Shown here: piece after piece, positions 23,079-62,890 of the stretch
Layout: each line of letters starts with the position of its first letter
Numbering within the stretch: position 1 is the first letter of the stretch
From: an uncultured Bacilli bacterium
GTDB taxonomy: Bacteria; Bacillota_I; Bacilli_A; RF39; UBA660
Direction: 5' to 3'
Length of the DNA: 64,000 nucleotides
Assembly (NCBI GenBank): GCA_910576925.1
Contig: CAJTKB010000002.1
Span: 419-64,418, forward strand
Program-made: the position numbers and the translations under genes
The notes under the pieces: model-generated
What the model was told of the DNA's origin: nothing
Databases searched by the model: none
Seen by the model: the letters and a program-made list of their open reading frames with translations, nothing else

Positions 23079-23261
23079 ATGTATAGAACATCTTATAACC
23101 CATATAATCAAAATACTATGTATAGAAGTTCCACCACTACAACTACTGCTAATCAAGGTGGATATTATGATGAAAGAGGTTTTTGGGTGCCTTTTGTAGT
23201 TGGTGGTAAGATACAGTTAGTATCTACCAATATTAAAATGTTAAATAGTTTGTATGTATAA
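23079..23261 (+). pseudogene. 5' half of a small Tyr/Gly-rich host gene, interrupted at about 23210 by prophage insertion. The last ~17 codons are prophage-derived.
   Basis: Strong RBS (GAGGAGG, 8 nt, ATG). The N-terminal sequence MYRTSYNPYNQNTMYRSSTTTTTANQGGYYDERGFWVPFVVGG would continue in frame into the 3' half at 62741. Confidence 0.45.
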
Positions 23262-23286
23262 TATTTACAAGCATTTTTACTTTTTC

Positions 23287-23501
23287 TATACATTAATATT
23301 ATCTGTACATTCAAAGTAAAGATCTGGTAGTCTTATTCCTGTATATTCTTCAAATAGTTTTGGGCTAATGTAATAACTATATTTGCCACCTGGATTTTGA
23401 ATGGCTGTTCCAAAAGGTAACAATCTTCTTTGTAGTCCTATTCTTATAAATTACTCTGTTTTTTTCATAAGCTTAGCTGCTTTTTTTACACTTAATTTCA
23501 T
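23287..23501 (-). pseudogene. 70-codon ORF interrupted by an in-frame TAA after codon 16 (MKLSVKKAAKLMKKTE*FIRIGLQRRLLPFGTAIQNPGGKYSYYISPKLFEEYTGIRLPDLYFECTDNINV)
   Basis: RBS GGAGGTG, 6 nt, then ATG. After the TAA, a protein-like reading frame continues for 53 codons. Confidence 0.3.
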
Positions 23502-23554
23502 TATCTCACCTCCTACTCTACTTAAATAAGTTTTCTCTGAATAGATTTGAAATA

Positions 23555-23980
23555 CTAAACTGTGATCTTATAATCTTTTGTTTTCTTCTCTATTAGTCTT
23601 GCATAGTTTTTAGGAGATGTTAAAACATTTTGATAAGTAGATATTTTTCTTATCTCTTCTAAAAATTCAATTTCTTTATCTGATACATATAATACCCTTT
23701 TATCTGATTTTATTATATTATCAGTACCTAAAATATAATTGATATCAACTTCAAAATAGTTAGCTATTTTTATAAGTACTTCCAATGGTATTGCTCTTTC
23801 TTCTTTTTCATAATGAGAAAGAGAAGTTTTACCTATATTTAATACTTTTGCTAATTCTCTTTGCGTTAAATTATTCTTCTTCCTTAATTCTCTTATTCTT
23901 TGCCCTATTACTGCCATATAATACCTTTTACCTTTCAATAGCATTATAATAGGTAACAATTTGGAGATTTTATAATCCAC
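23555..23980 (-). CDS. XRE-family HTH transcriptional regulator. The likely true start is the internal Met MAVIGQRIRELR.
   Basis: HTH_XRE motif LTQRELAKVLNIGKTSLSHYEKEER. Confidence 0.7.
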   Translation of the reverse strand: MDYKISKLLPIIMLLKGKRYYMAVIGQRIRELRKKNNLTQRELAKVLNIGKTSLSHYEKEERAIPLEVLIKIANYFEVDINYILGTDNIIKSDKRVLYVSDKEIEFLEEIRKISTYQNVLTSPKNYARLIEKKTKDYKITV

Positions 23981-24050
23981 GAATTGGAGAAAATATTTTT
24001 TTCAAACAAAAAACACTATCATCAAATTGATAATAGTGTTTTTTCTTTCA

Positions 24051-24422
24051 TTAACAAGTATTATGATTATTGTCAAACCATATAATATAAAAATGCTCAT
24101 TATCTCTATATCCAATAATTCTAAATTTTTCTGACAATCTCATAGATTGAATTGTAACATCCTTCGATATATTATCTGGTATCCTCATATTGTGCAAAAC
24201 CTCATATCTCATTCCACGGTCTTTTTTTATGTCTTTCCATTCTAATTTTTCAACTTTTTTAGCAAACTTTATAAATTCTTTTAATTCATTTGTATTTAAG
24301 TTATATATAGGATACTTATCATCACACATAGAAAACTTTAATGTACAGGTATTATTATCAGTACTACTATTATTTAACTTATATTTCGGTTGTTGTTTTT
24401 TTACCTTGAAACTATTCTTCAT
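24051..24422 (-). CDS. hypothetical protein, a candidate partner (toxin?) of the upstream Panacea-domain protein
   Basis: 123-aa ORF that overlaps the upstream gene by 11 bp. I recognise no motifs. Confidence 0.4.
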   Translation of the reverse strand: MKNSFKVKKQQPKYKLNNSSTDNNTCTLKFSMCDDKYPIYNLNTNELKEFIKFAKKVEKLEWKDIKKDRGMRYEVLHNMRIPDNISKDVTIQSMRLSEKFRIIGYRDNEHFYIIWFDNNHNTC

Positions 24423-24987
24423 TTAATTTTAATTTAAAAAAATCTCTCATACTTTTTTTAGAAATAATTTTAGTACACATTTCTCCAGGTTGAAAGCCAT
24501 TTCTAGCCTCGATCCAAGGCTTCTCTTGGTGTGTCATATTTTCTAAGTATTTGCCATCATAAATACCAAATGTTTCCCAAATTGAATATAAAAAATCAAC
24601 TAATTCATTGTCGAATAATGGAATTTCATCTTTTGTAGGACTATCAATTACATTAAATCCATACTTTTTATATTTATCATAAATTTCTGGATTAGCTGGT
24701 CCGTGTGCCCAAGCTTGAAAATCTTCATTAAATAATTCTTTTCCATTAATTGCCAAATAATATCCTTGAGCATAGTATAGTATTTTTTGCAATTTTAATG
24801 GAGTTATAGTACTCCCTGAATCCCTATCAACAATATTTAGAAAAAAATTAGCTACACTAAAAACGTCAATTTTGTCTCCTTTTTTCATCTTAAACACTCC
24901 CTTAAATATATATCTTCCTATTCTATTAATAGAATAGCACATTTTTTTGAAAATTAATATACCATTTTTAAACATAATGTCAAGCAC
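24412..24987 (-). CDS. Panacea-domain (DUF4065, SocA/GepA-like) phage-associated protein
   Basis: FSVANFFLN...PLKLQKILYYAQGYYLAINGKELFNEDFQAWAHGPANPEIY matches the DUF4065 consensus. The likely start is the internal MKKGDKIDVF. Confidence 0.65.
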   Translation of the reverse strand: MLDIMFKNGILIFKKMCYSINRIGRYIFKGVFKMKKGDKIDVFSVANFFLNIVDRDSGSTITPLKLQKILYYAQGYYLAINGKELFNEDFQAWAHGPANPEIYDKYKKYGFNVIDSPTKDEIPLFDNELVDFLYSIWETFGIYDGKYLENMTHQEKPWIEARNGFQPGEMCTKIISKKSMRDFFKLKLNEE

Positions 24988-25133
24988 CTCTTTTATTTTT
25001 TATTAATATTTCTTACTTTTTATATAAGTTGTCTATGCCTATTTTTCTATAAAATATATTATTTAGTATGCGCTATTATGTTAAATTCAAAACAAAAAAG
25101 AGACTAATCACATAATGCGACTAGCCTCTTTGA

Positions 25134-26018
25134 TTAATTATTACTTACTTCATATAAATAAGTTGAATATACCCAAACATCACGTCCAGCAATTTTTAAT
25201 TTAGCTGAATTAGTTGGTATATCTATTTCTTGAACAGTATAGATATTATCATTTTTAACATAGCTTGTACCACCTGTTAAAAGCTGGTCGTTTGTAGGAT
25301 TGCCATTTTTATCTACTTCTGTAAAATCACTTGTAGGTAACCAGTGATAATTCTTCACACGTTCATTATAATAATCATCATAACTATTACCTGTAAGTTC
25401 GCAACAACCAAACAAATTACTTGATAATGGACTTTTTAATATATCAACTTTGAATATACCATTGAATTTAACTTTGCTACCTTTAACTAATATCTGGTCT
25501 GGTTCATTTGTAACTTGACTTACGCTATTGCCCATTTTGCTTCTAACCATATTTAAGAACCTTTCCCAGCCCATATCTAAAGTACGATGTGGGCAATATT
25601 TATTTGCATAATCTTGATGCTTAGTTACTTTATCTATACCCCAACCATATCTTTTAAGAATACCTGCAATTAGTTCTGCTGCGTTTTCTTCTGCTTTATT
25701 AAATCTATCTCCTCCAGATTTAGAATAACAAATTTCAATAGCTATACCTTCTCTATTGCCTTTGCCATTGCCATCACCAGAATGCCAAGCATTTCTGTTT
25801 TCAGGTAAACCTTGTACTGCTTCTACATCATCTACTGCATAATGATATGATACTTGACTGCCACCTTGTGCCTGATTTTTATTCATATATTTAATCTCTG
25901 CGTCTGCTGAGGCGTCATTTGCTGTATTATGCACTACTATTCTTGTTGGTCTCATAGAATACGGACTCTTCCAACTGTATAAACTGGAACTCATTAAGTT
26001 TTGTCTTACTTTTACCAT
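25134..26018 (-). CDS. endolysin: N-acetylmuramoyl-L-alanine amidase (Amidase_2/PGRP fold) with a C-terminal cell-wall-binding domain
   Basis: IVVHNTAN...SYHYAVDD...AWHSGDG...KHQDYANKYCP are Amidase_2 zinc-site motifs. Confidence 0.85.
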   Translation of the reverse strand: MVKVRQNLMSSSLYSWKSPYSMRPTRIVVHNTANDASADAEIKYMNKNQAQGGSQVSYHYAVDDVEAVQGLPENRNAWHSGDGNGKGNREGIAIEICYSKSGGDRFNKAEENAAELIAGILKRYGWGIDKVTKHQDYANKYCPHRTLDMGWERFLNMVRSKMGNSVSQVTNEPDQILVKGSKVKFNGIFKVDILKSPLSSNLFGCCELTGNSYDDYYNERVKNYHWLPTSDFTEVDKNGNPTNDQLLTGGTSYVKNDNIYTVQEIDIPTNSAKLKIAGRDVWVYSTYLYEVSNN

Positions 26019-26020
26019 AA

Positions 26021-26290
26021 TTATTCACTCTCCTTATTTATTAAATTTCTAAATGTTTCATATAATCCTGTACTAGCTAAACCACTAAACAAGCCTGTTA
26101 AAATGACTTCTAAACTTATTTGATGAATATTTGATAAAACCGCTAATAATGTTCCTAAAATTCCCATAATTAAAGGAATAAACCTATTTACTTTATTTGA
26201 TGGTATTGCTTCTTTTATAATATAACCTACTCCCAAACAAATACCTAAAATTACTAAATTAATAAAACTTGTTAATTCATTTATATTCAC
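26021..26290 (-). CDS. holin
   Basis: 89-aa protein with two or three TM segments and a charged C-terminus, immediately upstream of the endolysin. Confidence 0.6.
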   Translation of the reverse strand: MNINELTSFINLVILGICLGVGYIIKEAIPSNKVNRFIPLIMGILGTLLAVLSNIHQISLEVILTGLFSGLASTGLYETFRNLINKESE

Positions 26291-26308
26291 AATTTATCAT
26301 CTCTCTTT

Positions 26309-26617
26309 CTATCTATGTGCCTGTTTTAACAGGTAATTTTCTATTTCACTAATAGATTCTGTAACTGGTCCGTTACAACCTTGCTCTTTAAGTCCTTTTA
26401 AACAAGCTAATTGTCCTTTTAGTAATATCGTATTTTCTTCCTTATTCGTCTTACTATCTATTTCTAATTTAGTTATCCTGGTATTAAAATTATCTAATTT
26501 ATCAACTATTTTTGTTTTATACCATTTTAATATAGCTAGAAAGAAAGTACCAATAAGACTTATTAATGCTATTGCGCTTCCTATTTGAGCTAATGTTATT
26601 TTTTCCATTTTAATCAT
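26309..26617 (-). CDS. XhlA-like lysis-associated membrane protein
   Basis: N-terminal TM plus a coiled coil. Its position before the holin matches the PBSX xhlA-xhlB-xlyA arrangement. Confidence 0.45.
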   Translation of the reverse strand: MIKMEKITLAQIGSAIALISLIGTFFLAILKWYKTKIVDKLDNFNTRITKLEIDSKTNKEENTILLKGQLACLKGLKEQGCNGPVTESISEIENYLLKQAHR

Positions 26618-26867: not shown

Positions 26868-26877
26868 TTTGATCCTC

Positions 26878-28469: not shown

Positions 28470-28479
28470 TTAAACACCT

Positions 28480-31909: not shown

Positions 31910-31919
31910 TTAAACACCT

Positions 31920-32304: not shown

Positions 32305-34719
32305 TCAACTCCTTACAACTGTTGTAGATAGTTGTTGTCTATTTCTTTCATCTTCTAAAGGTTTAAATAATGCTCGTGCTATTTCTGTGGTATCTATGTT
32401 AAGAACTGCACACATATTGGATAAAGATAAAATATTTTTATTTAAATCAATTAATAGACTTATCATTTCATTACTTGCTCCCTCTTCCCTCACTATTTGT
32501 CTGATTAAGTCTTCTGGTGCTTCTAAGTTTCTACCATGTTTCTGATCTCCTAAAATTGCTGCAAATTGTGCATTTGGCGGTATTACTGCTCCTTTAGCAA
32601 GATATGGTATTTGTGGTACAGATATAGTATTAATCAATCCTTTAAATGGTTTTGCTCCTAAAATATCAATATTTTTTATCTTAGTTAATGCTGAATTGAT
32701 ACCCTTAAATGGTATTGTTATTGTTTTATTAATTCCTGAAATTAAACCATTTATCACTAATTTCAATCCATTCAAAATACCATCTTTAATACCATCAAAT
32801 ATTTTTCCACCTGCTGAAAATACATTTTTCACTGCTTGCCAGGCATTAGCGAATGTATCTCTAAACCAAGATGCTACATTATTGCCAAAAATATTCTTAA
32901 TGCTTGACCATAAACTTCCAAAAAAGTTTAAAACGTTATCTTTGAGGCTTTGAATCCCATTAATCAATCCTTGAATAAGATAAGTCCCCATTTCAGCTGC
33001 TAATGTGCTAGGACTATGTATACCAAAAAAATTAAGTATAGCCTTCCATAAAGCGTCAAAAGCTCCTACTACCAAATCAATAGCCGCGGTAATACCTACA
33101 GCCAATCCTTTCATCAAGTCTAGTGTTATTCCAATATAATCAATATTCGCTATATAATCTATTATCGCTGTTATAATTTTACTTCCTAGTTCTCTCCAGT
33201 CAACAGATTGTATTTGCTTTGTTATATGTTCCCATAACTGTTTTGTACCATCACTAAGTTTTTTAGCAACAGATCCCCAATCTATTGCTAAAAGCATTGT
33301 TCCAATACCTGAAATAGCATTCCAGATTGTGTCAAAAATATTAATTGCTAATTGTCCCCACTCAATATTTGTAATAAAATCGCTAATTCCTTTCCCTAAA
33401 TTATTCCAATCTACTGCTTTTATAGCATCAGCAATAGCTCTTGTTATTCCTGTTCCTAATTGGCTGAATTTAGTTCCTAGTAAAGAAAAGTCTAGTTCAT
33501 TAATAAATCCATTAAATACTTGGACTGTATTTTGCATTCCTGCACTGATTTTATCTGTTAATTTCACTATATCAAATGAAACTAAAGCATTATTAATACT
33601 AGAAGCTATTTTTTGACCTACACCAAAAAAATCTCCTTGTGAGATTAATTTTTTGATTTCATTTAGATAATCTAGTAATTTTCCACTTTGCTCTATTTCT
33701 CCACTAAAATCAAGGCTAGGTATTTCTCCTTCACTTGCTCCTCCAGATGTATTGTTTTCATTATCATTTAAATTTTCTATTTCATCTATACTAGATAGAC
33801 CATTCTTAGCACTCTTGGCATTTTTGCCTAAATCTTGATAAGCTTTCGATTGTTCATATATGCTTTTAGCTCCATTTTTCGCTTGTGTAGCTGTTTGCCC
33901 AAATAATCCTGATACAAAAGTTGCTATCTGCCCTGTGATGCTAGATAAAGCAGTCATTAAATTGTTTAACGCTGGAAGGACATAATTATAAATAGGTGCG
34001 AATGCAGTTAATAAATTAACTTTTATTTGATTTAGGCTAGAAGCAAATTGAGAGTTAGAATTTAGCACTCCTATTAGACCACTTGACAATTTACTCAAAC
34101 CTGAGCTTAAAACATTAAAAACCAGTGCCCCTGTTATTAATCCTGTTATTCTCTTACCTAATTGACCAACTTTTTTATTTAAAGAATTTAATTGATTATT
34201 AATTGATTTGAATGGTTTTGTCTTAGAAAAAACTGATAATAAAGTTGTTCCCAATTTCTTTGCTTTTATATTAGCTTTATCTAAACTTTTAGAAAATTCT
34301 TCGCTAGAAGTATCTTTCATTTCATTTTTTAATTCATTAGCCTTCTTTTTAGATGAATCTAATTTACTTTCTGCTAATGCTAATTGCTTTTGTAGTTGTT
34401 TTACTTCCTCTGTGTTTTGTGGACTAAATTTAATATCTTCAATTTTACTAGATAGTTCATTTGCTTTTGATTTTAAGATATCAATTCTTTTTTCTGTTTC
34501 CACTGCATCAGTATCAAACGAATTTATTCTCCTTGCACTTTTATCAGCGCTTGAAGTATCTCCATTTTTTACAAACTTAGAATAATTTGATTGTTCTTGA
34601 TTTATAGAAACATCAATTTCTATTTTCTTTTTTTCTAGTTCTTCTAGTTCTTTTTCTGCTCTTTTCAGTTCTGCTTCAAAGGACTTTAGGCTTGCTGGCG
34701 TTTTGTTTCCTGATGCCAA
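32305..34719 (-). CDS. tail tape measure protein
   Basis: 804 aa with an N-terminal coiled coil, a Gly/Ala/Ile-rich low-complexity C-terminal half and membrane-like segments. Its position follows the chaperone pair. Confidence 0.8.
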   Translation of the reverse strand: MASGNKTPASLKSFEAELKRAEKELEELEKKKIEIDVSINQEQSNYSKFVKNGDTSSADKSARRINSFDTDAVETEKRIDILKSKANELSSKIEDIKFSPQNTEEVKQLQKQLALAESKLDSSKKKANELKNEMKDTSSEEFSKSLDKANIKAKKLGTTLLSVFSKTKPFKSINNQLNSLNKKVGQLGKRITGLITGALVFNVLSSGLSKLSSGLIGVLNSNSQFASSLNQIKVNLLTAFAPIYNYVLPALNNLMTALSSITGQIATFVSGLFGQTATQAKNGAKSIYEQSKAYQDLGKNAKSAKNGLSSIDEIENLNDNENNTSGGASEGEIPSLDFSGEIEQSGKLLDYLNEIKKLISQGDFFGVGQKIASSINNALVSFDIVKLTDKISAGMQNTVQVFNGFINELDFSLLGTKFSQLGTGITRAIADAIKAVDWNNLGKGISDFITNIEWGQLAINIFDTIWNAISGIGTMLLAIDWGSVAKKLSDGTKQLWEHITKQIQSVDWRELGSKIITAIIDYIANIDYIGITLDLMKGLAVGITAAIDLVVGAFDALWKAILNFFGIHSPSTLAAEMGTYLIQGLINGIQSLKDNVLNFFGSLWSSIKNIFGNNVASWFRDTFANAWQAVKNVFSAGGKIFDGIKDGILNGLKLVINGLISGINKTITIPFKGINSALTKIKNIDILGAKPFKGLINTISVPQIPYLAKGAVIPPNAQFAAILGDQKHGRNLEAPEDLIRQIVREEGASNEMISLLIDLNKNILSLSNMCAVLNIDTTEIARALFKPLEDERNRQQLSTTVVRS

Positions 34720-38451: not shown

Positions 38452-39303
38452 TTAAGCTTTATGAGAACAATAAACACCTGCTAATTTATTCTCATAAACA
38501 TGTGCATATAAATTATTATTACGATATTTAAATACATTATCATCACCATCTTGATCCTCATCTGGTGTAAAGTATTTAATATATTGTTCCATGTGTGATA
38601 CTACTGCACTTCTTTCTACACATAAAAAGTTAATTTCTTTACCATCTTCAGCCTTAACATATCCATATTCTGTTTTACCATCATTTAATTTAATTTTGGT
38701 ATACATTCTAGACTGTGGAATTTCAATAATTTGTGAAAATTTATTTAATACCTCTTTAGACTTATAAGAATCTAAATCACTAACTAATGCTCTATTAGTA
38801 GGTGTAATAAATAAAATTCTGTTTTCTGGATCCACTTCGTCCTCATCCATTTTATTTGTACAAGCACGTAAAGCAGCTATTACACTTGCTCCATCTGTTA
38901 AATTTTCCTCTTTAACACTTATACCTACAACACCAGCTATTTTTGCAATTCTTGCTGCATCAGTTTCAGGAACAACTTTAGTTCTAATAAACTCACTTGA
39001 TAGCTTTGCAAATGGTAATCTTAATGCCTCTACATTATCTAATCTATCAATACGTAAATCTTGTGAACGCTCTTTATCATATTTAATAGTTTCCCATCTA
39101 AATGTTGTAAACCCTTTTGTATAGCCTGTATTTCTGTCAAAATCTCCTAAAGCATCCATATCTAATTTTGCAACTTTTATTTCTCCGTTGTCACCACGTT
39201 TTATTGTTGCTTCATCACCCTCTAAAATAGCAGTTTTTGAAGCCTGTTTGTACACTTTATCTAATAATGGTAGATACTTTGTACTTAACTCAATATTATT
39301 CAT
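38452..39303 (-). CDS. major capsid protein
   Basis: 283 aa, lying after the scaffold gene in the head module. Confidence 0.6.
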   Translation of the reverse strand: MNNIELSTKYLPLLDKVYKQASKTAILEGDEATIKRGDNGEIKVAKLDMDALGDFDRNTGYTKGFTTFRWETIKYDKERSQDLRIDRLDNVEALRLPFAKLSSEFIRTKVVPETDAARIAKIAGVVGISVKEENLTDGASVIAALRACTNKMDEDEVDPENRILFITPTNRALVSDLDSYKSKEVLNKFSQIIEIPQSRMYTKIKLNDGKTEYGYVKAEDGKEINFLCVERSAVVSHMEQYIKYFTPDEDQDGDDNVFKYRNNNLYAHVYENKLAGVYCSHKA

Positions 39304-43668: not shown

Positions 43669-45037
43669 CTACCTCATTACTATCATCAGATATTTTCAAC
43701 ATTGGAAGTAATCTTTTGATAATTCTCCATAATCCCATAATTGAATATCTTTCCGCATCACAACAATGGTCATCCTTTTTTATTGGTACTTCTCTACCTT
43801 TATCTAATAAGTCCTCATCATATTTATATAGATATTTCTCTTCAATTAAATGTTTTTGTTTAGGAGATAAAAAAAGACGTCTGAATGACAATAATTTTTG
43901 GACTCTACTAATTCCTAAATCAACATCATTTTTAGCATCTTTTATTTTTGTATCTGAACATACTCTCTTTATTTCTTCTGCTAGACCTTTAGCAGATGGA
44001 TCTATATATGCTGTAGTAACTTTAAGTCCTGTTTCTACTTCTATTTTATCTTTGAAATCTTTAAAGTCTTTAGCATATTCACTTGGACTTTTTTGTTTAC
44101 CTTCATCTCTACCACTATGATAATATTCGTCAACACCTCTAACACACTTATCTGCATAATCAAAACCAAAGCATTCATAAGTTGTAGCATTCATCTGTCC
44201 ATAATCGACACCTATTATCAAGGTGTTCATATTCTTTAAATTTTCCTTAGTTATTTCTTTTATATGTTCATCTTCATTAAACATATAATAAATAACTTCA
44301 TCTATTCCTATACATAATCCTAGCCATAACCATTGATACATCTTAAAATCTAAATTCTTTAGTATTTCTGCTGATTCTATCAGCTTTCTACCTAACCAAG
44401 ACTGTGGAACATCTCTATAATCAGTATGAATATGAATACAATCAGGACGCTGTATCATTTTTTCTAACCATTTCATAATAGGTGCTTTAGAATTTTTAGG
44501 AGGATTAAAGTAATACTCCATAACAAAGTTATCATCATTACCACGAATAAAAGTTGCTTCTATATTCTGCAACTCATCCTCTCCATCACCCTTATCAAAA
44601 AATTCTGTTAACTCGTCTATTTCTACTAATACAATAGGTCTATCTTCATCTATCATACCTTTAGTATCATCTATCGAATCATTTCCTGTGAAATAAATAG
44701 TATTTCCAGTTGGCTTATAAGTTATTTGCATTGGACTTACAGTTATCTTAAAATCCTTTTTATTTAATCCTAATCTAGTAATAGCCCTCTTGCATTCTGC
44801 AAATACTGTTTTTTTTAACTTATTATGAAACTTTCTCATAACTACAACTGAGCCTGGTTTTTTGTCTATTATGGTTCTGACCGCCTTTAATCCACCCCGA
44901 CTTGATTTTGTTCCTGCACGTCCGCTTGTATATATTTGATGAGTATCAATATTGTCATTAAAATTAGGATAATATTTTGGAATAATTAAATCACTCAACT
45001 TAATTGTTTTTTTGTTTTTAAAATTTAGGCAAGTCAT
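43655..45037 (-). CDS. terminase large subunit
   Basis: Walker A-like TSGRAGTKSS near the N-terminus, acidic nuclease-half motifs and a 460-aa length. Confidence 0.85.
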   Translation of the reverse strand: MTCLNFKNKKTIKLSDLIIPKYYPNFNDNIDTHQIYTSGRAGTKSSRGGLKAVRTIIDKKPGSVVVMRKFHNKLKKTVFAECKRAITRLGLNKKDFKITVSPMQITYKPTGNTIYFTGNDSIDDTKGMIDEDRPIVLVEIDELTEFFDKGDGEDELQNIEATFIRGNDDNFVMEYYFNPPKNSKAPIMKWLEKMIQRPDCIHIHTDYRDVPQSWLGRKLIESAEILKNLDFKMYQWLWLGLCIGIDEVIYYMFNEDEHIKEITKENLKNMNTLIIGVDYGQMNATTYECFGFDYADKCVRGVDEYYHSGRDEGKQKSPSEYAKDFKDFKDKIEVETGLKVTTAYIDPSAKGLAEEIKRVCSDTKIKDAKNDVDLGISRVQKLLSFRRLFLSPKQKHLIEEKYLYKYDEDLLDKGREVPIKKDDHCCDAERYSIMGLWRIIKRLLPMLKISDDSNEVDEDD

Positions 45038-50072: not shown

Positions 50073-50693
50073 CTACCTTTCTTTATGTTGATGCATAAAT
50101 TCATAAACTGAATTTAACCCCATATTTTCAAGCAACCAATTTGTTGCATATTCTTTACTTAAATGAGTCTTTTTAACTCTGTTTTCGTAATAATCGTTAT
50201 AAGCTCTATTATGTAGTTCTTCTTCATTTTCATAATTACCTTCAATTAAATAAACATCATATTCTAAAGCTCTAATACCATCTAAAGTATAAGTATCAGT
50301 CGCATATATTAGCTTTTCATTATTCATAAATACTCTTAAGCCCATATTTTCTACATCGTGATATAACTTTATAGGACTTATTTTAAATAGTTCATAATCG
50401 TATAATCTATTAGCCTCTATCACATCAATATTTTGTTTTCTGACGCCTATTTTTACCAAATCATTAACTAGATAGCTCCCTACTGCAAATCGCAATGTTG
50501 GTCTGTTCTTTGCTAGCAATCTAACTGTTCTTTTATTAAAATGGTCCTGATGTATATGTGAGATGAAAACTAATTTTAAATTTTTGATATAAGGAATTAG
50601 CTTTTTATAGCTAATTCCACAGTCAATTGCAATGATGTCATTTACTATTGTGCAATTTCCGTCAGATCCACTATTAATTATTGAGTAACGCAT
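50073..50693 (-). CDS. metallo-beta-lactamase-fold hydrolase
   Basis: ISHIHQDHF matches the HxHxDH motif. Confidence 0.65.
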   Translation of the reverse strand: MRYSIINSGSDGNCTIVNDIIAIDCGISYKKLIPYIKNLKLVFISHIHQDHFNKRTVRLLAKNRPTLRFAVGSYLVNDLVKIGVRKQNIDVIEANRLYDYELFKISPIKLYHDVENMGLRVFMNNEKLIYATDTYTLDGIRALEYDVYLIEGNYENEEELHNRAYNDYYENRVKKTHLSKEYATNWLLENMGLNSVYEFMHQHKER

Positions 50694-51558
50694 TCATATC
50701 TACCTGTTTAGCCTCTGTTTTTTCAATAGTTTGTGTTTCTGTAACATCCTCTTGTTCTATAATTTCAGCATTGTAAATAGTATTATCATTTTCTATATAT
50801 CCTTGTGAGTCAATAGTATTTACTGATACCTCATCACTATTTACTGCACCAAATTGTACTGAATTTAATTTATTTCCGAATAACGTTAGTAGGTTCTTTG
50901 CAAGTTCCTTTACTGTTTTTGTATTGACCATTTTTAAACTTTGAGAATTCCAAGGACTAAATTCAGACTTCCCACTCGGAGAAGTATTTTTAATTTTATC
51001 TAGGTCATTTTTTGTTAAAAATACAGTTGATTCAAAACCATTTGCAAATTTAATATAAGCATAACTTCCTATTACATTTTCATAATCTTGATACCTTTCA
51101 CCCACAAATTCGTGACTTAAATCTCCTGTTACAGGATTAAATGAATATTTATCATTTGTAGTAATAACATTACTATTAAATTTAATTATTTCTCCAGGCT
51201 TAATCATATCTAGTATTTTAAAATACCCCTCTTTTTTTCGACAAATTGTAGGCTTTCCTTTAAAAGGTACTATGTCATAGTCAATACCTGCTTCTAAACC
51301 TAACATTGCCTCTTTTAATACGCCATAAAGCATTTGTAGCTTTCCATTGTTATCAAGCTTCATTAAATCTTGCCTATTAGAAATATAAAATCCTGCACTT
51401 GTTTTAATTCTGTCTATTGTAGTATTTTTTGGAAGTAGTGCTATATTTTGCATTAATACTTTTTCAACTCCTAGCTCAACACCTGATTTATTTGTAATTT
51501 CAACTAAATTATTATTCTTTTGTTGTTGTAAATTTTGTTTATTATTTGCATTGTTCAT
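50674..51558 (-). CDS. phage single-strand annealing recombinase (RecT-like, tentative)
   Basis: The size and position, downstream of a DUF1351-like gene and upstream of an MBL-fold gene, match Firmicutes phage recombination modules. Confidence 0.4.
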   Translation of the reverse strand: MNNANNKQNLQQQKNNNLVEITNKSGVELGVEKVLMQNIALLPKNTTIDRIKTSAGFYISNRQDLMKLDNNGKLQMLYGVLKEAMLGLEAGIDYDIVPFKGKPTICRKKEGYFKILDMIKPGEIIKFNSNVITTNDKYSFNPVTGDLSHEFVGERYQDYENVIGSYAYIKFANGFESTVFLTKNDLDKIKNTSPSGKSEFSPWNSQSLKMVNTKTVKELAKNLLTLFGNKLNSVQFGAVNSDEVSVNTIDSQGYIENDNTIYNAEIIEQEDVTETQTIEKTEAKQVDMNALLNN

Positions 51559-53021: not shown

Positions 53022-53494
53022 AATTTTCTTATCCCTTCTATTCTTACTTTTTGTTCTTTCTCATAATACTTGTCATAGAGCTTGTCCAGTCTTTCATAAC
53101 TGTAATTGTCTAAATCTTGATATGTTACCTTTGTACCTTCTTTTGATAACTTCCTTATCAAAGCTTTTATTAGCAAGCATTTCTTATAATGAGTGCTATT
53201 GTATTCATTTAATAGCATTGTTTTATGACATAAGTTACAATCTATTAGATAATCATTTTTAAGTTTTTCTTTTTTATTTAACGTTAATAAGCCATCAACT
53301 AAATCGAATGGACTGGGTATTTTTTTTCTTTTTATTTCATCTTGTAAATATTCATCTAACTTTTTAACAACTTCTTCGCATTTATAATTTTTTAAAACTC
53401 TATACCATTCTTCCGAAACTTCATCTGCCTTAGCCATATTTTGATAATGAACTCTAACTCTATCTAAAAGTTTACAAACCTCTGTATCGTCCAC
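53015..53494 (-). CDS. hypothetical replication-module protein
   Basis: ORF that overlaps the end of the replisome organizer gene. Confidence 0.3.
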   Translation of the reverse strand: MDDTEVCKLLDRVRVHYQNMAKADEVSEEWYRVLKNYKCEEVVKKLDEYLQDEIKRKKIPSPFDLVDGLLTLNKKEKLKNDYLIDCNLCHKTMLLNEYNSTHYKKCLLIKALIRKLSKEGTKVTYQDLDNYSYERLDKLYDKYYEKEQKVRIEGIRKLC

Positions 53495-54299
53495 TTTTTT
53501 TCTCCTCTTCTATTTGTTTTCTTATTTTGTCCCATTTACTAGGTTCTTTTTCTTTATCAAGCTCTTTATTCTGATTTTTTTTATCTCTAAATTTCTTAAT
53601 ATAAGCCTCTGCTTCTTGTAAAGTCCTTACATTAGCTTTCTGCCAATTGTAAATAATTCTATCTATGTAGTTTATATAAAACACACCATTCGTAACACTT
53701 TCAGCAATAGCTAGTTTTATAAGCTCTACTGGATAAGTCCAAGTTTTAATTTTCTCTTTTTCTAACGGAGTAGTAAATCTTCCAAATTCTTTTTCTAAGA
53801 TTTCATTCACCTTTCCAAACGTTTCATTGTCCATATTAGATGTACTAATATTATTAGTAATTACTATACTACTCTCTTCTTTTCTATACTCTTCTATACT
53901 ATTCTCTTCTATACTGGGTTGCCAGTTGGTTGCCAAATGGTTGCCAGGAGTATTTTGGTCTTTTAAATTATAGATTTTTTCATCTACTACAAGTTGTTTT
54001 TTTTCATTAACATACATCGTTGGGTTATATCTATCTTTTCGTATTGTATTGTGTATAAGCCAATGTCTAACAACACATACCTTACTTTCAAATGGTATTA
54101 GATATCTCTTTAATATTAATAGTTTAAAATCGTCTTCTTTAGCTCCTATAACGCGCATAATTGAATTACAATTATCTATGAAGCCATCATCATCTGCTCT
54201 AATATTTAAGTGAAAGTATAATGCTTGTGTTGTTAAAGGCATATCTAGAAAGTCGTCACTATCTGCTATAGTTTTATCAAACATTCGTTTTTGTGCCAT
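53472..54299 (-). CDS. phage replisome organizer (DnaD-like N-terminal domain)
   Basis: MAQKRMFDKTIADSDDFLDMPLTTQALYFHL is the characteristic N-terminus of the phage replisome organizer family. Confidence 0.7.
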   Translation of the reverse strand: MAQKRMFDKTIADSDDFLDMPLTTQALYFHLNIRADDDGFIDNCNSIMRVIGAKEDDFKLLILKRYLIPFESKVCVVRHWLIHNTIRKDRYNPTMYVNEKKQLVVDEKIYNLKDQNTPGNHLATNWQPSIEENSIEEYRKEESSIVITNNISTSNMDNETFGKVNEILEKEFGRFTTPLEKEKIKTWTYPVELIKLAIAESVTNGVFYINYIDRIIYNWQKANVRTLQEAEAYIKKFRDKKNQNKELDKEKEPSKWDKIRKQIEEEKKSGRYRGL

Positions 54300-55683: not shown

Positions 55684-55685
55684 AA

Positions 55686-55886: not shown

Positions 55887-55894
55887 ACTCTCTC

Positions 55895-56566: not shown

Positions 56567-56926
56567 ATGTTTGGAGAAAGACTAAAATATTTACGAGAAA
56601 ACAAAAACTTACTTCAAAAAGAATTAGGAGATGCTTTAAATGTTACTTCTCAAACTGTGAGTGGCTGGGAAATTAATAGAACAAAACCAGATTATGATAT
56701 GTTGGTTACTATAGCAAATTTTTTTGAAGTTACTATTGACTATTTATTAGGTAATGAGATGAAAGCAACTAAAATTGAAAATGAATTAAAAGAAAAAGAA
56801 GCGTTGAAACAGTTATTAATAAAAAATGGATATATGAAAGAAAACGAAAATTTAAGCGACGAGGAATTAAATAAGCTTATGAAATTTGTGGTTAATAATA
56901 AAGATATATTGAAAGGAAATAAATAA
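56567..56926 (+). CDS. CI-like XRE-family repressor
   Basis: HTH (LLQKELGDALNVTSQTVSGWE). The RBS is AAGGAGG. It is divergent from the cro-like gene. Confidence 0.7.
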   Translation: MFGERLKYLRENKNLLQKELGDALNVTSQTVSGWEINRTKPDYDMLVTIANFFEVTIDYLLGNEMKATKIENELKEKEALKQLLIKNGYMKENENLSDEELNKLMKFVVNNKDILKGNK

Positions 56927-57726
56927 TGATGATTTCAAAAAAGAAGAATGGATTAAAGTCCTCAAATGCATCAAGTATTGAAGGAAAAAATATTGAAGGC
57001 AGAACGATAATTTCTTCTAAATGGATTATTGATTATTTATTAAAATTAATAGATAATAATCTTAATTGTGAATTATATACTTTTATAGAATTTTTTCCCA
57101 TATATAAAGCAAAAATTAAAAGTTTAATCAAATATAAAGTCTCTGAAATACCCGAAAAGTTTTTAACAAAACCAGATATCAACGTTATTATTGCTTTTAT
57201 TGAATATCTAAAATCTGATATAGACAAAGAATACAAAATGGATATATATGTAAATTTAATTATGAAAAACATAGATGTTAGAAATAAGAAAATAATTCAT
57301 AATTCTTTCTTATCAATTATTAAAGATTTAAATTATAATGATATCTTGCTATTAGATAATTTACGAAAAATAAAAAAAGAAGATATTATAAGCTTAAATG
57401 TAATAGATAACAATTCAAATATTATTGATATATTTAATTGTGAGAAATACTTTACCTTCATAAAACATAATATAAATTTAGATGAGTTGACAATTTCTAT
57501 TAATAACCTAATACGATTAAATTTAATTTCTCTTTTTATGTCATCGCAAAAAAAAGAGAACATTTTAGAAAACTGGATAAATATCTTGCATTCAGAAACA
57601 ATAAAGAACATTTCTAAGGAACAGAAATGTGATTTACAATTTCAAGCAAAGCAAAGTGGTTATATATCATTAACTAATTTAGGAGAGATTATTGCAAATC
57701 TATGTATTATAGAAAATTATATTTAA
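56926..57726 (+). CDS. hypothetical protein translationally coupled to the repressor (candidate superinfection-exclusion / abortive-infection factor)
   Basis: 266-aa ORF whose ATG overlaps the cI stop (TAATG). I recognise no domain. Confidence 0.4.
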   Translation: MMISKKKNGLKSSNASSIEGKNIEGRTIISSKWIIDYLLKLIDNNLNCELYTFIEFFPIYKAKIKSLIKYKVSEIPEKFLTKPDINVIIAFIEYLKSDIDKEYKMDIYVNLIMKNIDVRNKKIIHNSFLSIIKDLNYNDILLLDNLRKIKKEDIISLNVIDNNSNIIDIFNCEKYFTFIKHNINLDELTISINNLIRLNLISLFMSSQKKENILENWINILHSETIKNISKEQKCDLQFQAKQSGYISLTNLGEIIANLCIIENYI

Positions 57727-57792
57727 TATTTCTTACTATAAAAGCACTAAAATGAACTGAACCCCAAAAGTTGGACAGTTTATAAATAGTTT

Positions 57793-58690
57793 CTAATTAA
57801 AGGATTGTAACCTGTAATTTACGGGAGATAGTCCTTTTAATTTTACTTTAATTCTATCATAATTATAATATTTAATATAGTCATCGATTGCTAAAATTAG
57901 TTCATCTATTGTTTTATAACTTTCTTCTTGGTCATAAAACATTTCAGTTTTAAGAAGTCCAAAGAAATTCTCCATCATTCCGTTATCCATGCTGTTTCCT
58001 TTTCTAGACATGCTTTGCTTAATACCTTTATTCTTTAATCGTTGTTGATAAGAAGCATGCTGGTATTGCCAACCTTGATCAGAATGAAATATTAAACCTT
58101 CTAAATTTCTATCATTAAATGCTTTATCTAACATATCATTTATTTGTTCTAGATTTGGAGATTTAGATGTATTGTAAGATACTATTTCACCATTAAATCC
58201 GTCTAGTATTGGTGATAAATAAATCTTTTCTCCACGAAGATTGAATTCAGTAACATCTGTATACCATTTCTGATTTGGTTTAGCTGCAGAGAATTCTCGA
58301 TTAATATAATTATCTGCTATTTTACCAACTGTTCCTTTATATGATGAATATTTTCTTTTGTTTCTTTTTAAAGGTTTTAATCCTAACTTCACCATTATTC
58401 TATAAACTTTCTTGTGATTAACATTATAACCTTGATTTCTAAGTTCTAATGTTATCCTACGATAGCCATATCTTTCTTTATTATTTATAAATATTTCTTT
58501 AATTTTATCAATTATTTCATTATTTTTTTCATCTTTATCTGTTTTAGATAAAGTATAATAATATACTGATTTTGCTAAACCAGATATCTTTAGAAGAATC
58601 TTTAATGAATATGTTAGCCGAAGTTCACTTACAACATTTACTTTTTCTTCTGTTGTTGATTCTTCCTTGCTTGAACAACGGCTCTCAATT
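57793..58690 (-). CDS. IS3-family transposase OrfB (DDE integrase core). The N-terminus extends upstream of the first Met and is expressed by -1 frameshift from orfA.
   Basis: KERYGYRRITLELRNQGYNVNHKKVYRIM upstream of the annotated Met, together with HSDQGWQY, matches the IS3 OrfB pattern. Confidence 0.75.
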
Positions 58691-59144
58691 TTTTTGAGTA
58701 TTCTAGCTCAGCCTTCAAATATAAATTCTCTTCTTGTAATCGTTTTATAGTTTCATCTTTAGTTTCTTTAGATTTTTTCTTCGTTACTTTTGGCATAGTT
58801 GGACGCCCTCGCTTTCGTTCAACTATATTATAACCATTTTCTTTATATTTTGAAATCCAGTTTGATAGCATTCCATGACTAGGTAATCCTAAATCTATAG
58901 AAACTGCCCAGGTAGATTCCCCTTTATTTAAAACTCTATTTATTGCATCTATTTTGAAAGTTAAAGAATATCTTTTATTTTTCTTTTTTTGCACTATCTT
59001 GTATCCATGTCTCTCAATTAATCTAACTAAATATTTCACTCGTCTTGCATCAATTTTATATTCTTGATGAACAGTTTCAAGAGAGACACCTTTTTTTCTT
59101 TTATTATATATTTCAACTTTATCCTCATAACTTAATTTAGACAT
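58638..59144 (-). CDS. IS3-family transposase OrfA (HTH)
   Basis: 168 aa with an HTH and a leucine-zipper-like C-terminus, ending near the slippery site. Confidence 0.75.
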   Translation of the reverse strand: MSKLSYEDKVEIYNKRKKGVSLETVHQEYKIDARRVKYLVRLIERHGYKIVQKKKNKRYSLTFKIDAINRVLNKGESTWAVSIDLGLPSHGMLSNWISKYKENGYNIVERKRGRPTMPKVTKKKSKETKDETIKRLQEENLYLKAELEYSKKLRAVVQARKNQQQKKK

Positions 59145-59552: not shown

Positions 59553-60203
59553 ATGAGAATTGTAGTTATTGAAGATAATAAAAGAGTTAACTCATTGATC
59601 TGTGAGTATGTAAATGAAATAGTAAGTAAAAGTTGTTTAGATTATCAATTATTAAATTTTTATAGTTTTAATGATAATCTTAGAAAAATTATTTATAATT
59701 GCGATATTAAAATTTATATTGTAGATTTACAGCTCAATTCTAAAAGTGGATATAATATTTGTAGAGAAATACGAGAAGGAGCTAATGATTGGAAAAGCAT
59801 TATAATTATTTGTTCAGCTTATAATCAAAAAGAAGAAATTATATCTTTAAGACTATCTATTTTTACTTATGTATCCAAACATATTAATTTTAAAAGTAAC
59901 ATCAAAGATAGCATAAATAAAGCTATCCAAATTTTATCTAGTAATAACATTGTAACAATAGATAAAAATACAAAAATATGTATTAATGATATTTGCTATA
60001 TTGAAAAAATTAAACAAACTAAGTATTGTAAAATAGTTACTCTAGATTCTAAAGAATATAAAATAATGAAAACTATTAAAATGTTGAAAAAGGAACTAAA
60101 TTTTAAACAGATAAGAAACTATTTGCTAATTAACGATAATAATATTAGAATAATAGATAAACAGGAGATCACCTTTATAAATAAAATTAGTATTAAATAT
60201 TAG
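59553..60203 (+). CDS. LytTR-family response regulator (REC + LytTR), orphan
   Basis: MRIVVIEDN with the IVDLQL acceptor Asp region, and a C-terminal LytTR pattern (ICYIEK...FKQIRNYLLINDNNI). Confidence 0.6.
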   Translation: MRIVVIEDNKRVNSLICEYVNEIVSKSCLDYQLLNFYSFNDNLRKIIYNCDIKIYIVDLQLNSKSGYNICREIREGANDWKSIIIICSAYNQKEEIISLRLSIFTYVSKHINFKSNIKDSINKAIQILSSNNIVTIDKNTKICINDICYIEKIKQTKYCKIVTLDSKEYKIMKTIKMLKKELNFKQIRNYLLINDNNIRIIDKQEITFINKISIKY

Positions 60204-60218
60204 AAAGGGAATAAAAAT

Positions 60219-61181
60219 ATGAGTACAGAATTAGAACAAAGAAATGAAATAATATTATTTGAAAATCAAGAAGTCAAACTTGAAGTAAATATGCAAGATG
60301 AAACTGTTTGGTTATCTTTAGAACAAATGGCTAGATTGTTTGACAGAGATAAATCAGTAATTTCAAGACATATAAGAAATGTTTTGGAAGAAGAGTGTGA
60401 CAATTCAACTGTTGCAAATTTTGCAACAGTTCAAAAAGAAGGTAATAGAGAAGTTACCCGAGAAATAGAATATTATAATCTGGATGTAATAATTAGTGTA
60501 GGTTATCGTGTTAAAAGCAAAAATGGTATTTTATTTAGAAAATGGGCTAATAAGGTATTAAAAGACTATATGATACAGGGATATTCAATTAATAAGCAAA
60601 GACTTGAATATTTAGAAAAAACAGTTAAGCTAATAGATATTGCTAACCGTGTAGATAGCGAATTAAAAAGTAATGAAGCTAGAGAGATTATTAAAGTTAT
60701 AAATGAATATTCTAATGCTCTAAATTTATTAGATGAATACGACCACAGAACTTTAACTAAACCTAAAGGAACATTAAATAATGATGTAATAATAAAATAT
60801 CAAGATTGCTTGAATATAATTAATCAAATGAAATTCAAGAACGATAGTGATATTTTTGGATTAGAGAGAAACAATGGCTTAGAAAGTATTATAAACAACG
60901 TATTCCAATCATTTATGGAAAACGATGTCTACCCTACCATTGAAGAAAAAGCCTCTAATTTTCTGTATTTAATTGTTAAAAATCACGTATTCATAGATGG
61001 TAACAAAAGAATAGCTGCTACCCTATTTATTTACTTCTTACAATTCTATAATATTCTTTATAAGAATAATAAACAAGTAATAGATAACAACACATTAGTA
61101 GCAATAACGTTATTAATTGCAGAATCTAATCCTAAAGAAAAGCAGATTTTAATTGATTTAATTATGAATTTTCTAAATTAA
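60219..61181 (+). CDS. RhuM-family protein with a C-terminal Doc-type Fic domain
   Basis: NLDVIISVGYRVKSKNGILFRKWANKVLKDY is the RhuM signature. HVFIDGNKRIAATLF matches the Doc/Fic HxFx(D)GNKR motif. Confidence 0.7.
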   Translation: MSTELEQRNEIILFENQEVKLEVNMQDETVWLSLEQMARLFDRDKSVISRHIRNVLEEECDNSTVANFATVQKEGNREVTREIEYYNLDVIISVGYRVKSKNGILFRKWANKVLKDYMIQGYSINKQRLEYLEKTVKLIDIANRVDSELKSNEAREIIKVINEYSNALNLLDEYDHRTLTKPKGTLNNDVIIKYQDCLNIINQMKFKNDSDIFGLERNNGLESIINNVFQSFMENDVYPTIEEKASNFLYLIVKNHVFIDGNKRIAATLFIYFLQFYNILYKNNKQVIDNNTLVAITLLIAESNPKEKQILIDLIMNFLN

Positions 61182-61334
61182 AAAAAGACCTCACACGGCA
61201 ATGTGAAGTCAAATGAAAAACTACTTAGTGACCAAACTAAAACTATAACAAAAATATAGAGTTTTTCTATACAATGTGATAGGAGTTTTTCTATTACATT
61301 GTAGCATATTATTAAATAAAAAGGAAGTGTTACA

Positions 61335-62714
61335 ATGATAAAGAATAATGAAACAATAAACAAAATAATTAGAGTTGCTATATATATACGAGTATCTACG
61401 GAAGAACAAGCCAAACACGGTTACTCACTAGGTTCACAACTAACTAGACTAAAAGAATATTGTAAACAAAAAAGTTATAAAATTATAGAAGTTTATACTG
61501 ACGAAGGAAAATCAGCTAGAAGCAAACTAAAACTAAGAACAGAACTTTTAAGACTAATAGAAGATGTCAAAGCTGGAAAAATAGATAGAATTGTTTTTTG
61601 GAGACTTGATAGATGGTTTAGAAATATTGCTGATTATTACAAGGTCCAAGAAATATTAGAAGCTAATAATGTTGACTGGGAATGTTCTGATGAAGAATAT
61701 AACACTACTACCTCAAACGGACGACTTCATTTAAATATTAAACTATCTATAGCACAAAATGAATCAGATCAAACCTCAGACAGAATTAAGTTTAATTTTG
61801 AAAATATGATTAAAAGTAAAAAAGCAATATGTTGTACTCACTCTTGCCCATTTGGATATAAAGTAGAGGGTGAAAAAGGTAATAAACACGTAGTAAAAGA
61901 TAAAGAAAAAGAAGAAATGGTAAATTTTATTTTTGATACTTATGAGTTGAACAATAACTACAGACAAACAACTATCCTTTTTAATAAAAAATATGGTTAC
62001 TCTACTGATCCTACCATTATTAAAAAGATGTTAAAGAAAACAATTTATTATGGAGAATATAAAGGTGTTACAGATTATACAGAAGCTTATATCACAAAAG
62101 AAAGATGGAATAAAATCCAAGAAATGCTTCCAAATAACGTTAAAAAAAATAAAAATCACGAATATATTTTTTGTGGATTAATTATTTGCAAACATTGTGG
62201 TAGAAAAATGTCAGGAAGTACTAATAGAAGTTATCAGAGATATACTTGCAAAAAGAATAAAGAAGCTAAAGTTTGCCCGAATACCAAACAAATTACACAA
62301 AACAGACTTGAAAATTATTTGTTATTTATTCTTGAAGATTTACAAAAATTAGAAGTAGATTCTATTGCAAAAGAAAAAGAAGATAAAAATACCATTGACA
62401 TAGAAAAAGAAACTAGTAAAATAGATAAAAAAATCAATAGATTAAATGAATTATATATTGAGGGTCATATTTCCAAAGAAAAATACGATAAAGATATAAC
62501 TATATTCCAAAAGCAAAAAACAGAATTTCTTTCTCTAAAAAGAAAAAAGAAGAAAGAAAAAGAGATTATTAATCTCCCTAATGATGCTATAGAACTTTAC
62601 AAAATGCTAAATTCTGAAAACAAAAGAAACTTTTGGAAAAAGTATATAGACTATATAGAATTTGATTATACAAAGGATAATATAGAAGATAGAATAACTA
62701 TAATTTTAAAATGA
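61335..62714 (+). CDS. large serine recombinase (phage integrase/excision recombinase)
   Basis: N-terminal resolvase domain VAIYIRVSTEEQ...GYSLGSQ, a recombinase domain and a zinc ribbon (CKHCGRKMSG...YTCKK). Confidence 0.85.
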   Translation: MIKNNETINKIIRVAIYIRVSTEEQAKHGYSLGSQLTRLKEYCKQKSYKIIEVYTDEGKSARSKLKLRTELLRLIEDVKAGKIDRIVFWRLDRWFRNIADYYKVQEILEANNVDWECSDEEYNTTTSNGRLHLNIKLSIAQNESDQTSDRIKFNFENMIKSKKAICCTHSCPFGYKVEGEKGNKHVVKDKEKEEMVNFIFDTYELNNNYRQTTILFNKKYGYSTDPTIIKKMLKKTIYYGEYKGVTDYTEAYITKERWNKIQEMLPNNVKKNKNHEYIFCGLIICKHCGRKMSGSTNRSYQRYTCKKNKEAKVCPNTKQITQNRLENYLLFILEDLQKLEVDSIAKEKEDKNTIDIEKETSKIDKKINRLNELYIEGHISKEKYDKDITIFQKQKTEFLSLKRKKKKEKEIINLPNDAIELYKMLNSENKRNFWKKYIDYIEFDYTKDNIEDRITIILK

Positions 62715-62890
62715 TGTACTAACTATATCGTACCAGGAGGTCTTGCTGGAGGTGCACTCGGTTATAGTATAGCTAACAATAATTTTTTGAGTAATAACAA
62801 TAACAACAATGGATATTATCCAATGGGGCCAGGACCTAGACCTTGTTGTGGTCAAGGACCAATTTTTGTTACACCATATCCTTGGTATTA
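62715..62890 (+). pseudogene. 3' half of the split small Tyr/Gly/Pro/Cys-rich host gene (…GGLAGGALGYSIANNNFLSNNNNNNGYYPMGPGPRPCCGQGPIFVTPYPWY*). It has no start codon of its own.
   Basis: The open frame begins right at the recombinase TGA. The first in-frame ATG is 37 codons in. The composition matches the 5' half at 23079. Confidence 0.45.

Follow-up and report, generated by a model that had tools for sequence, protein, structure and literature searches.

A serine-integrase prophage interrupts codon 42 of a small gene with a putative late sporulation role in uncultured gut Firmicutes

Two short reading frames flank a prophage in the genome of an uncultured Bacilli bacterium, and the locus raises the question of whether they are the halves of one host gene, what that gene might do, and whether its interruption is reversible. 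The stretch of DNA analyzed here, referred to as the window, comprises 64,000 nucleotides (nt). The initial annotation of this window proposed that a full prophage with a serine recombinase adjoining one junction splits a small open reading frame (ORF) in frame, and that the joined product would have about 92 residues. Both proposals were borne out. We found that a 92-codon host gene, hereafter the target gene, is split by a prophage of 39.5 kb, which occupies positions 23204-62737 (39,534 bp, counting one copy of the crossover core) according to BLAST breakpoints against contigs that carry the empty site (L001, L002, and L003).

If the two frames were merely unrelated ORF fragments, they would still join in frame with a one-in-three chance, and many alternative joins are arithmetically possible. 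Hence, the join by itself proves little. What settles the matter is the natural occurrence, in public assemblies, of an uninterrupted protein identical to the joined one. A protein search with the joined 92-residue product retrieved P0001, also of 92 residues, with 100% identity and 100% coverage (E=4e-57), along with homologs of 84-93 residues and P0005 (60 residues), the truncated product of the window itself. The left half of the gene starts at an ATG at position 23079, preceded by the ribosome-binding site (RBS) GAGGAGG (23065-23071, forward strand, read directly from the sequence). It provides codons 1-41 and the GG of codon 42 (23079-23203, forward strand), corresponds to residues 1-42 of P0001, and its flank matches the empty-site contig L001. 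The ORF read from this ATG is MYRTSYNPYNQNTMYRSSTTTTTANQGGYYDERGFWVPFVVGG. Its host part ends in ...PFVVGG, and beyond the junction it continues through 17 phage-derived codons, with attL adding KIQLVSTNIKMLNSLYV before a stop at 23261. The right half (62736-62891, forward strand) runs from codon 42 to the stop, corresponds to residues 42-92 of P0001, matches the empty-site contigs at 100%, and itself lacks both a start codon and an RBS. After the TGA of the recombinase gene (62712-62714) this frame reads CTNYIVPGGLAGGALGYSIANNNF...PYPWY, and its stop ends at 62891, one position beyond the end given in the initial annotation (62890). Phage DNA restores neither half of the gene, at attL or at attR.

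The intact locus could also be found at the DNA level. P0001 is encoded on the Logan contigs L001 and L002, in the same gene order as in the window: PolC, two unknown genes, ferredoxin, pseudouridine synthase, the target gene, and a convergent histidine kinase. Positions 1-6129 of L001 are identical to window positions 17079-23207 at 6128 of 6129 bases (99.98%, a single mismatch), and positions 6124-7388 are identical to window positions 62736-64000 at all 1265 bases (100%). Excision in silico at the GG core described below thus recreates a natural allele, both as protein (P0001) and as DNA (L001 and L002). The identity of the flanks between occupied and empty sites extends over 7.4 kb, and either insertion or excision must therefore be very recent. 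These data refute a coincidence of unrelated fragments. A misassembly of phage and host DNA within a metagenome-assembled genome (MAG) is equally hard to sustain: 13 contigs, drawn from NCBI and Logan assemblies, carry the attL of the interrupted form, which excludes a one-off error. One carrier is the NCBI MAG GCA_948686165.1, which is 100% identical to the window. Moreover, homologous junctions exist in other species. Altogether, we regard the probability of coincidence or artefact as negligible. Contig L008 was considered as a second interrupted locus and rejected, as tblastn matched residues 1-41 only, yet the gene is intact.

The gene adjoining the right half (61335-62714, forward strand) encodes a protein of 459 residues with an RVST motif (Ser21). 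This protein matches the Pfam families Resolvase (PF00239, 9.4e-31, residues 14-156, where the stretch IYIRVSTEEQ includes Ser21), Recombinase (PF07508, 22.9 bits, cutoff 21.1), and Zn_ribbon_recom (PF13408, 7e-10, 39.5 bits, cutoff 25.3), as well as the PHROG integrase family phrog_95 (1.4e-98). By its domains, it is predicted to be a large serine recombinase of the phage integrase type. Among the 15 best phage matches, no integrase of a deposited phage exceeds 38% identity. The 3' half of the target gene is in frame with the integrase ORF, from which one TGA and seven sense codons separate it (62712-62740; also at 4380-4420 of contig L038 and 4378-4410 of contig L043), and the JGI gene caller gave a 513-residue fusion of integrase and target in one of these cases (P0123). 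This arrangement probably reflects a compact packing of the integrase gene (int) and attP.

Large serine integrases use a non-palindromic core of 2 bp with imperfect inverted repeats on either side. Comparison of attL, attR, and attB places the crossover at a GG dinucleotide (23202-23203 and 62736-62737), that is, at the first two bases of codon 42. The empty site, attB, reads TTTGTAGTT-GG-AGGTCTTGCTGG. In the window, attL (23183-23222, forward strand) consists of the B arm TTTGTAGTT, the GG core, and the P' arm TGGTAAGATACAGTTAGTA (23204-23222), and attR (62717-62756, forward strand) consists of the P arm TACTAACTATATCGTACCA (62717-62735), the GG core, and the B' arm AGGTCTTGCTGG. The rebuilt attP is therefore TACTAACTATATCGTACCA-GG-TGGTAAGATACAGTTAGTA, with inverted-repeat arms that match at 17 of 19 positions, and the distal GTACTAAC motif of attR is common to the att sites of related integrases. 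At 23204, where attB has A and attL has T, lies the only mismatch of the flanks; the exchange must have happened to the left of it. As the att sequences diverge immediately on both sides, the exchange is confined to GG. The initial annotation had rightly expected a short core, while its choice of GGT (23205-23207 and 62739-62741) has to be moved 4 nt to the left, a correction that leaves the joined protein unchanged.

The same codon is hit again in other hosts. P0067 and P0090 (51 residues, ending in ...GYYDERGFWIPFVVGG-NI) are the left halves of genes of the P0016 type from other species, cut after FVVGG, to which the second phage adds only NI and a stop codon. On the corresponding contigs (23 and 1, respectively), attL reads TTTGTTGTA-GG-AGGTAATATATAGTTAGTG, and the empty site L031 diverges from this attL straight after GG, so that the same dinucleotide is used in this second species. 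Occupied sites outnumber empty ones in both cases, with 13 versus 3 contigs in the window species and 23 versus 7 in the second species; the other attL junctions are on L024-L030 and the empty sites on L001-L008 and L031-L034. The second prophage differs in content, carrying an M23 peptidase, an Acb2/Tad1-like protein, a DUF285 protein, and a tail protein of 2,022 residues, and its nucleotide similarity to the window prophage is only patchy (70-76%). The Acb2/Tad1-hairpin protein (5055-5255 of L024) belongs to the family of anti-CBASS/Thoeris sponges, and the large tail protein contains an LPD38 domain.

The right junctions lead to the same position. Homologs of the window integrase form a tight group at 85, 82, and 71% identity (P0122, P0123, and P0124), followed by P0125-P0127 at 67-69%, of which P0125 was the one inspected, and then by proteins of at most 56%. 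P0122 is encoded on L043 beside the attR GTACTAACTATACTATACCA-GG-TGGCTTAGCAGG and P0123 on L038 beside GTACTAACTGTGTAGTACTA-GG-TGGCTTAGCAGG, each followed by the 3' half of a P0016-type gene. On L048, P0124 adjoins an attR ending in CATACTAGG-GG-GACTAGCAGGAACTGC, followed by the 3' half of a gene of the LAGTALGYGIANNNQ subfamily. Thus, one integrase clade (71-100% identity) has kept to codon 42 in no fewer than four host lineages and on several different phage backbones. In the TIGER study, a tight integrase clade at one position with several interrupted and uninterrupted alleles is the pattern that nominates regulated gene integrity (Mageeney et al., 2020; PMC7192596), and the codon-42 sites, as read from the contigs, display this pattern. 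Relatives of at most 56% identity, from the IMG/VR loci L009-L021, were rejected as co-targeters, having other att sites and no half-gene. At the P0125 loci (69%; L039-L042) the P arm is similar, and the phage end GTACTAACTTACTTTTACCACCAG abuts two unrelated host flanks, a 147-residue ORF (L039 and L041) and a gene with a VWA domain (L040 and L042). This suggests that the P0125 lineage has a different or looser target containing GGTGG.

What, then, is the gene that is hit? A profile built from 15 homologs retrieved 410 proteins at E<=1e-3. The top 120 of these are all 50-117 residues long, none has a Pfam domain, and their only name is 'MAG: hypothetical protein [Bacilli bacterium]'. Likewise, the family gave nothing above noise against Pfam and NCBIfam. 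We found it only in uncultured gut Firmicutes. Its invariant core is G-YYDERGF-PFVVGGLAGGALGY-ANNNFL, and across 34 more diverse members the residues R33, P38, F39, G42, G43, A45, G46, A48, L49, G50, Y51, and NNN are invariant. The tails are of low complexity, rich in Tyr, Asn, Thr, and Pro, with a frequent PRPCC motif. AlphaFold2, run on the 34-sequence alignment, predicts a single helix at residues 37-53 with low confidence (pLDDT 50), and residues 35-53 have a mean hydropathy of 1.44. The insertion point, FVVG|GLAGGALG, lies in this stretch. According to the model, the phage cuts midway through the sole conserved hydrophobic, Gly-zipper-like helix. The attB DNA differs between species at synonymous positions (GTAGTTGGAGGTCTTGCTGGAGGTGCACTC versus GTTGTAGGTGGCTTAGCAGGAGGTGCTCTA), and the peptide VVGGLAGGALG stays constant, which points to a real coding constraint. 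A membrane histidine kinase gene (62911-63996, reverse strand; HisKA and HATPase_c domains) is a convergent neighbor of the target gene, also on L008, L031, L044, and L046. Such a kinase, of about 411 residues, is nearly always encoded 3' of the target gene, even where the upstream neighbor changes in distant subfamilies.

A putative mother-cell promoter precedes the target gene (23036-23060, forward strand), composed of AC at 23036-23037 and CATAAAATA at 23052-23060. The box CATAnnATA occurs about 10 nt before the RBS in all 12 distinct upstream regions of homologs, including those of distant subfamilies, and AC stands exactly 16 nt upstream of it in 10 of them. The remaining upstream sequence is not conserved, and a TTGACA box is absent from all 12 regions. 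In Clostridioides difficile and B. subtilis, sigmaE and sigmaK have a common CATA-type -10 box and differ in the -35 element, ATA for sigmaE and AC for sigmaK (PMC3789822). The combination of AC and CATAnnATA agrees with this description and thus suggests a promoter of the sigmaK type. In the window, CATAnnnTA has a frequency of 0.47 per kb per strand, and it is followed by an RBS and an ORF in only three cases, the target gene included; the other two have no -35 AC at 16-17 nt. With regard to the host, the window contains a SpoVD equivalog (11234-13141, reverse strand; NCBIfam TIGR02214, 717.5 bits, cutoff 688), and distant members of the family have CotZ-domain spore-coat genes and an FtsW/SpoVE gene within 3-10 kb of the target homolog. 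On account of these genes, the host is probably a spore former. From its promoter and its setting, we infer that the target is a late mother-cell sporulation gene.

Excision by a serine integrase would call for a recombination directionality factor (RDF), a class of proteins that is not recognizable by sequence (PMC12286644). The best candidate is an Xis-like gene for a small helix-turn-helix (HTH) protein at the left end of the prophage, which is a pseudogene in the window (23286-23501, reverse strand; phrog_6058, with a weak HTH_17 match at E=0.076). Its product of 66-71 residues is encoded facing int across attP, and it is the sole att-proximal gene conserved between the two mosaic prophages. 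An intact version (66 residues) lies beside attL in the second prophage, with 76% amino-acid identity to the window copy, and Butyrivibrio phage Idris has a homolog whose annotation is putative Xis. An exact look-up of the intact window protein, rebuilt by six alternative single-base reversions, gave none in the collection.

Altogether, we propose that a temperate siphovirus-like phage integrated when its large serine integrase exchanged attP with an attB inside codon 42 of this 92-codon gene, and that the gene would encode a small protein of the spore envelope or of a membrane, made late in the mother cell from a sigmaK-type promoter, in uncultured spore-forming gut Firmicutes. We assign this joint claim a probability of about 0.8. 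Lysogens would then be devoid of the protein unless the prophage excises, a step that would require the integrase together with an RDF, perhaps the Xis-like protein, and loss of the protein would be expected to alter the spore envelope. Recent mobility of the prophage is indicated by the identical flanks of occupied and empty sites.

A number of observations weigh against this reading, or against parts of it. In the window and in the close relative L003, AC precedes the CATA box by 14 nt, not 16, and CATAnnAT contains the sigmaA-like TAnnAT, so that the sigma factor can only be assigned by inference. MAGs and metagenome contigs are all that represents the host; the MAGs are labelled Bacilli or Clostridia and are not known clostridia. 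Codon 17 of the Xis-like gene is an in-frame TAA in the window (23453-23451), as well as in L022 and L023, and only the last 26 codons of the gene are retained in L029; where it is intact (L024 and L030), its upstream region is sigmaA-like. If this gene is the RDF, the window copy of the prophage may be unable to excise. Finally, the exact 22-mer of attP was not found in IMG/VR or in the JGI metagenome contigs. This negative is weak, because the JGI contigs likewise yielded no hit for the right-half DNA of the second species, although L038, a JGI contig, contains the string. The P' arm of the second phage had no match in IMG/VR.

Given that the gene is split, the consequences for the lysogens can be read in two ways. 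The phage may simply use a conserved stretch of a gene dispensable for growth as a safe landing pad, with lysogens losing the protein and the prophage perhaps locked in place. Such insertional inactivation, to which we give a little less than even odds, agrees with the failure of either junction to restore the gene, with the Xis-like pseudogene and the IS3 insertion in the prophage, with the frequent disruption of target genes by serine integrases (PMC7192596), and with the excess of lysogens over empty sites. It is less easily reconciled with the invariance of the core among about 410 relatives, a sign that the protein is of consequence, with flanks that testify to very recent movement, and with the lasting fidelity of the integrase clade to one codon across hosts, a pattern of the regulated cases.

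Alternatively, as described for SPbeta, excision might take place in the mother cell only and rebuild the gene before its sigmaK-driven expression, so that the spore keeps the prophage. What makes regulated excision of the skin or SPbeta kind plausible, by analogy, is solely the conserved sigmaK-type promoter of the target gene, and we hold this reading as a tentative one. In the accounts cited here, every sporulation intervening element interrupts a gene of the mother cell (PMC4191935; PMC5595907), the codon-42 sites show the TIGER pattern, and permanent loss of a protein with an invariant core should be costly. The prophage genes themselves give a less favorable picture. No CATA box or mother-cell promoter was found within about 110 nt upstream of the intact Xis-like genes (L024 and L030), the candidate RDF carries a nonsense mutation in the window copy, and no further AC-N16/17-CATAnnnTA motif precedes any prophage gene start in the window. 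Upstream of int stands CATATTAT, which has the form of a -10 box for mother-cell sigma factors, and in relatives down to 50% identity this box is CATAnnAT; however, other relatives, with other targets, have TATAAT at this place, and the box is ambiguous in that it does not separate sigmaE from sigmaA. We judge coupling of excision to sporulation to be plausible but less likely than not, and still more doubtful for the window copy with its stop codon in the Xis-like gene. The probability left over by these two readings falls to other regulated or stress-induced forms of excision. That an integrase lineage has specialized on one codon of a sigmaK-driven spore-envelope protein, and thereby operates an SPbeta-like switch in which the prophage is kept in the spore and excised in the mother cell, is likewise a speculative proposal; if true, the surface of the spore, and possibly transmission, would depend on phage carriage in a gut lineage that has never been cultured.

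The closest known architecture is that of SPbeta, which splits spsM of B. subtilis and is moved by SprA and SprB (PMC4191935). Both cases involve a complete-looking temperate prophage with a serine integrase beside attR and a small accessory gene beside attL, both split a late spore-envelope gene of the mother cell with sigmaK-type expression, a putative one in the present case, and in both exact excision restores the frame. They differ in the target, a 92-residue helix protein here and a sugar epimerase in SPbeta; in the host, here an uncultured gut lineage; in the core, 2 bp (GG) here compared with the 16-bp shared core reported for SPbeta; and in the candidate RDF, for which no mother-cell promoter was found here. 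SPbeta records are absent from the 15 best phage matches of the integrase, a result that gives no figure for the identity to SprA itself. The skin elements in sigK, with SpoIVCA in B. subtilis and with CD1231 and an RDF in C. difficile, are also serine recombinase elements in a mother-cell sporulation gene, and C. perfringens PhiS63 is an inducible phage able to occupy the sigK site (PMC5025042; PMC3442830). Their target is a sigma factor and not a small structural protein, and most skin elements are defective, whereas the window prophage retains all virion modules. Gene-intervening elements in sporulation genes also include yin in yabG of C. botulinum, gin in gerE of B. cereus, vfbin, and vrin (PMC10747680; PMC5595907), which have other targets and recombinases and whose rearrangement was seen experimentally, while the present one is known from sequence alone. 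In Listeria, the A118 and phi10403S prophages inactivate comK through a serine integrase and restore it by reversible excision, known as active lysogeny (PMC4191935; PMC7192596), but that switch is triggered by the phagosome and is not linked to sporulation. The TIGER candidates (Mageeney et al., 2020; PMC7192596) rest on the same type of evidence, namely clade, position, and both kinds of allele. That test depends on reference genomes and on a target with a Pfam domain, and the present target, which has no Pfam model and is known from MAGs only, would escape it.

Rearrangements of this kind have already been called widespread in spore formers (PMC5595907). Hence, the window prophage belongs with the skin, yin, gin, vfbin, and vrin elements, and what is new is the target gene, not the mechanism. 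The target does not appear among the interrupted genes named in the published accounts cited here (PMC5025042; PMC3442830; PMC4191935; PMC7192596; PMC10747680; PMC5595907), in line with the view of the initial annotation that it is not a described one. Our results would thus extend, by a gene with a probable spore role, the list of sporulation targets of mobile elements, and the evidence, empty sites found in nature together with recurrent insertion by a single integrase clade, is of the type on which nominations for regulated gene integrity rest. Domain-based screens cannot see this gene, whose hosts are gut bacteria not yet in culture. In addition, an unannotated, highly conserved family of small proteins is flagged as a likely late mother-cell spore component. 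The defined pair of attP and attB with its GG core, the new serine integrase, and its three natural variants could serve as orthogonal recombination tools.

By Pfam and PHROG matches, the window prophage is siphovirus-like, and packaging, head, tail, lysis, replication, and repressor modules are all present. Its reverse strand encodes, from the left, an Xre/cI-type HTH protein (23555-23917; HTH_3, 1.4e-17; Phage_CI_repr, 1.4e-5), a cargo protein with a SocA/Panacea domain that is a putative antitoxin (24412-24987; PF13274, 1.8e-20), an endolysin of the amidase type (25134-26018; phrog_3088, 3e-72), the tail tape-measure protein (32305-34719; phrog_1535, 3e-63), the major head protein (38452-39303; phrog_422, 8e-60), the portal protein (42265-43668; phrog_533, 7e-101), the terminase large subunit (43655-45037; phrog_10250, phrog_3717, and phrog_2), a RecT-like annealing protein (50674-51558; phrog_148), and a DnaD-like replication loader (53472-54299; phrog_5708, 3e-65). 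A minor head protein is also encoded, according to PHROG. On the forward strand follow a cI-like repressor (56567-56926; HTH_3 and Phage_CI_repr) and cargo consisting of an Abi_alpha abortive-infection protein (56926-57726; PF14337, 6e-20) and, by Pfam, a LytTR response regulator with a RhuM/Fic protein (59553-61181). Between Abi_alpha and the LytTR regulator lies an insertion sequence of the IS3 family on the reverse strand (57793-59144, from Pfam and the ORF list), with a 168-residue OrfA (HTH_Tnp_1) and a 200-residue rve fragment of OrfB separated by a 243-nt gap; no clear terminal inverted repeats were found for it. The IS3 insertion and the Xis-like pseudogene are signs of decay; contrary to decay over a long term, the flanks are identical to those of empty sites, which points to a recent insertion. 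Thus, of the description of the element as a full lytic-competent prophage, the full set of modules stands, and lytic competence is uncertain in view of these two lesions. A megablast search of 25 kb of the prophage against INPHARED gave no match. The SocA/Panacea gene lies beside a gene for a partner of 123 residues (24051-24987 for the pair), and the two may form a toxin-antitoxin system.

Elsewhere in the window, a polysaccharide biosynthesis cluster (1624-9821, reverse strand) is located upstream of the MraY and SpoVD genes, with a UDP-glucose dehydrogenase, a flippase-like protein, several glycosyltransferases, an EpsG-like polymerase, and a priming sugar transferase. The two genes between PolC and ferredoxin (20094-21862, reverse strand) encode conserved proteins of 282-297 residues with no Pfam or NCBIfam match, and the pair keeps its position in the distant relatives L035 and L037.

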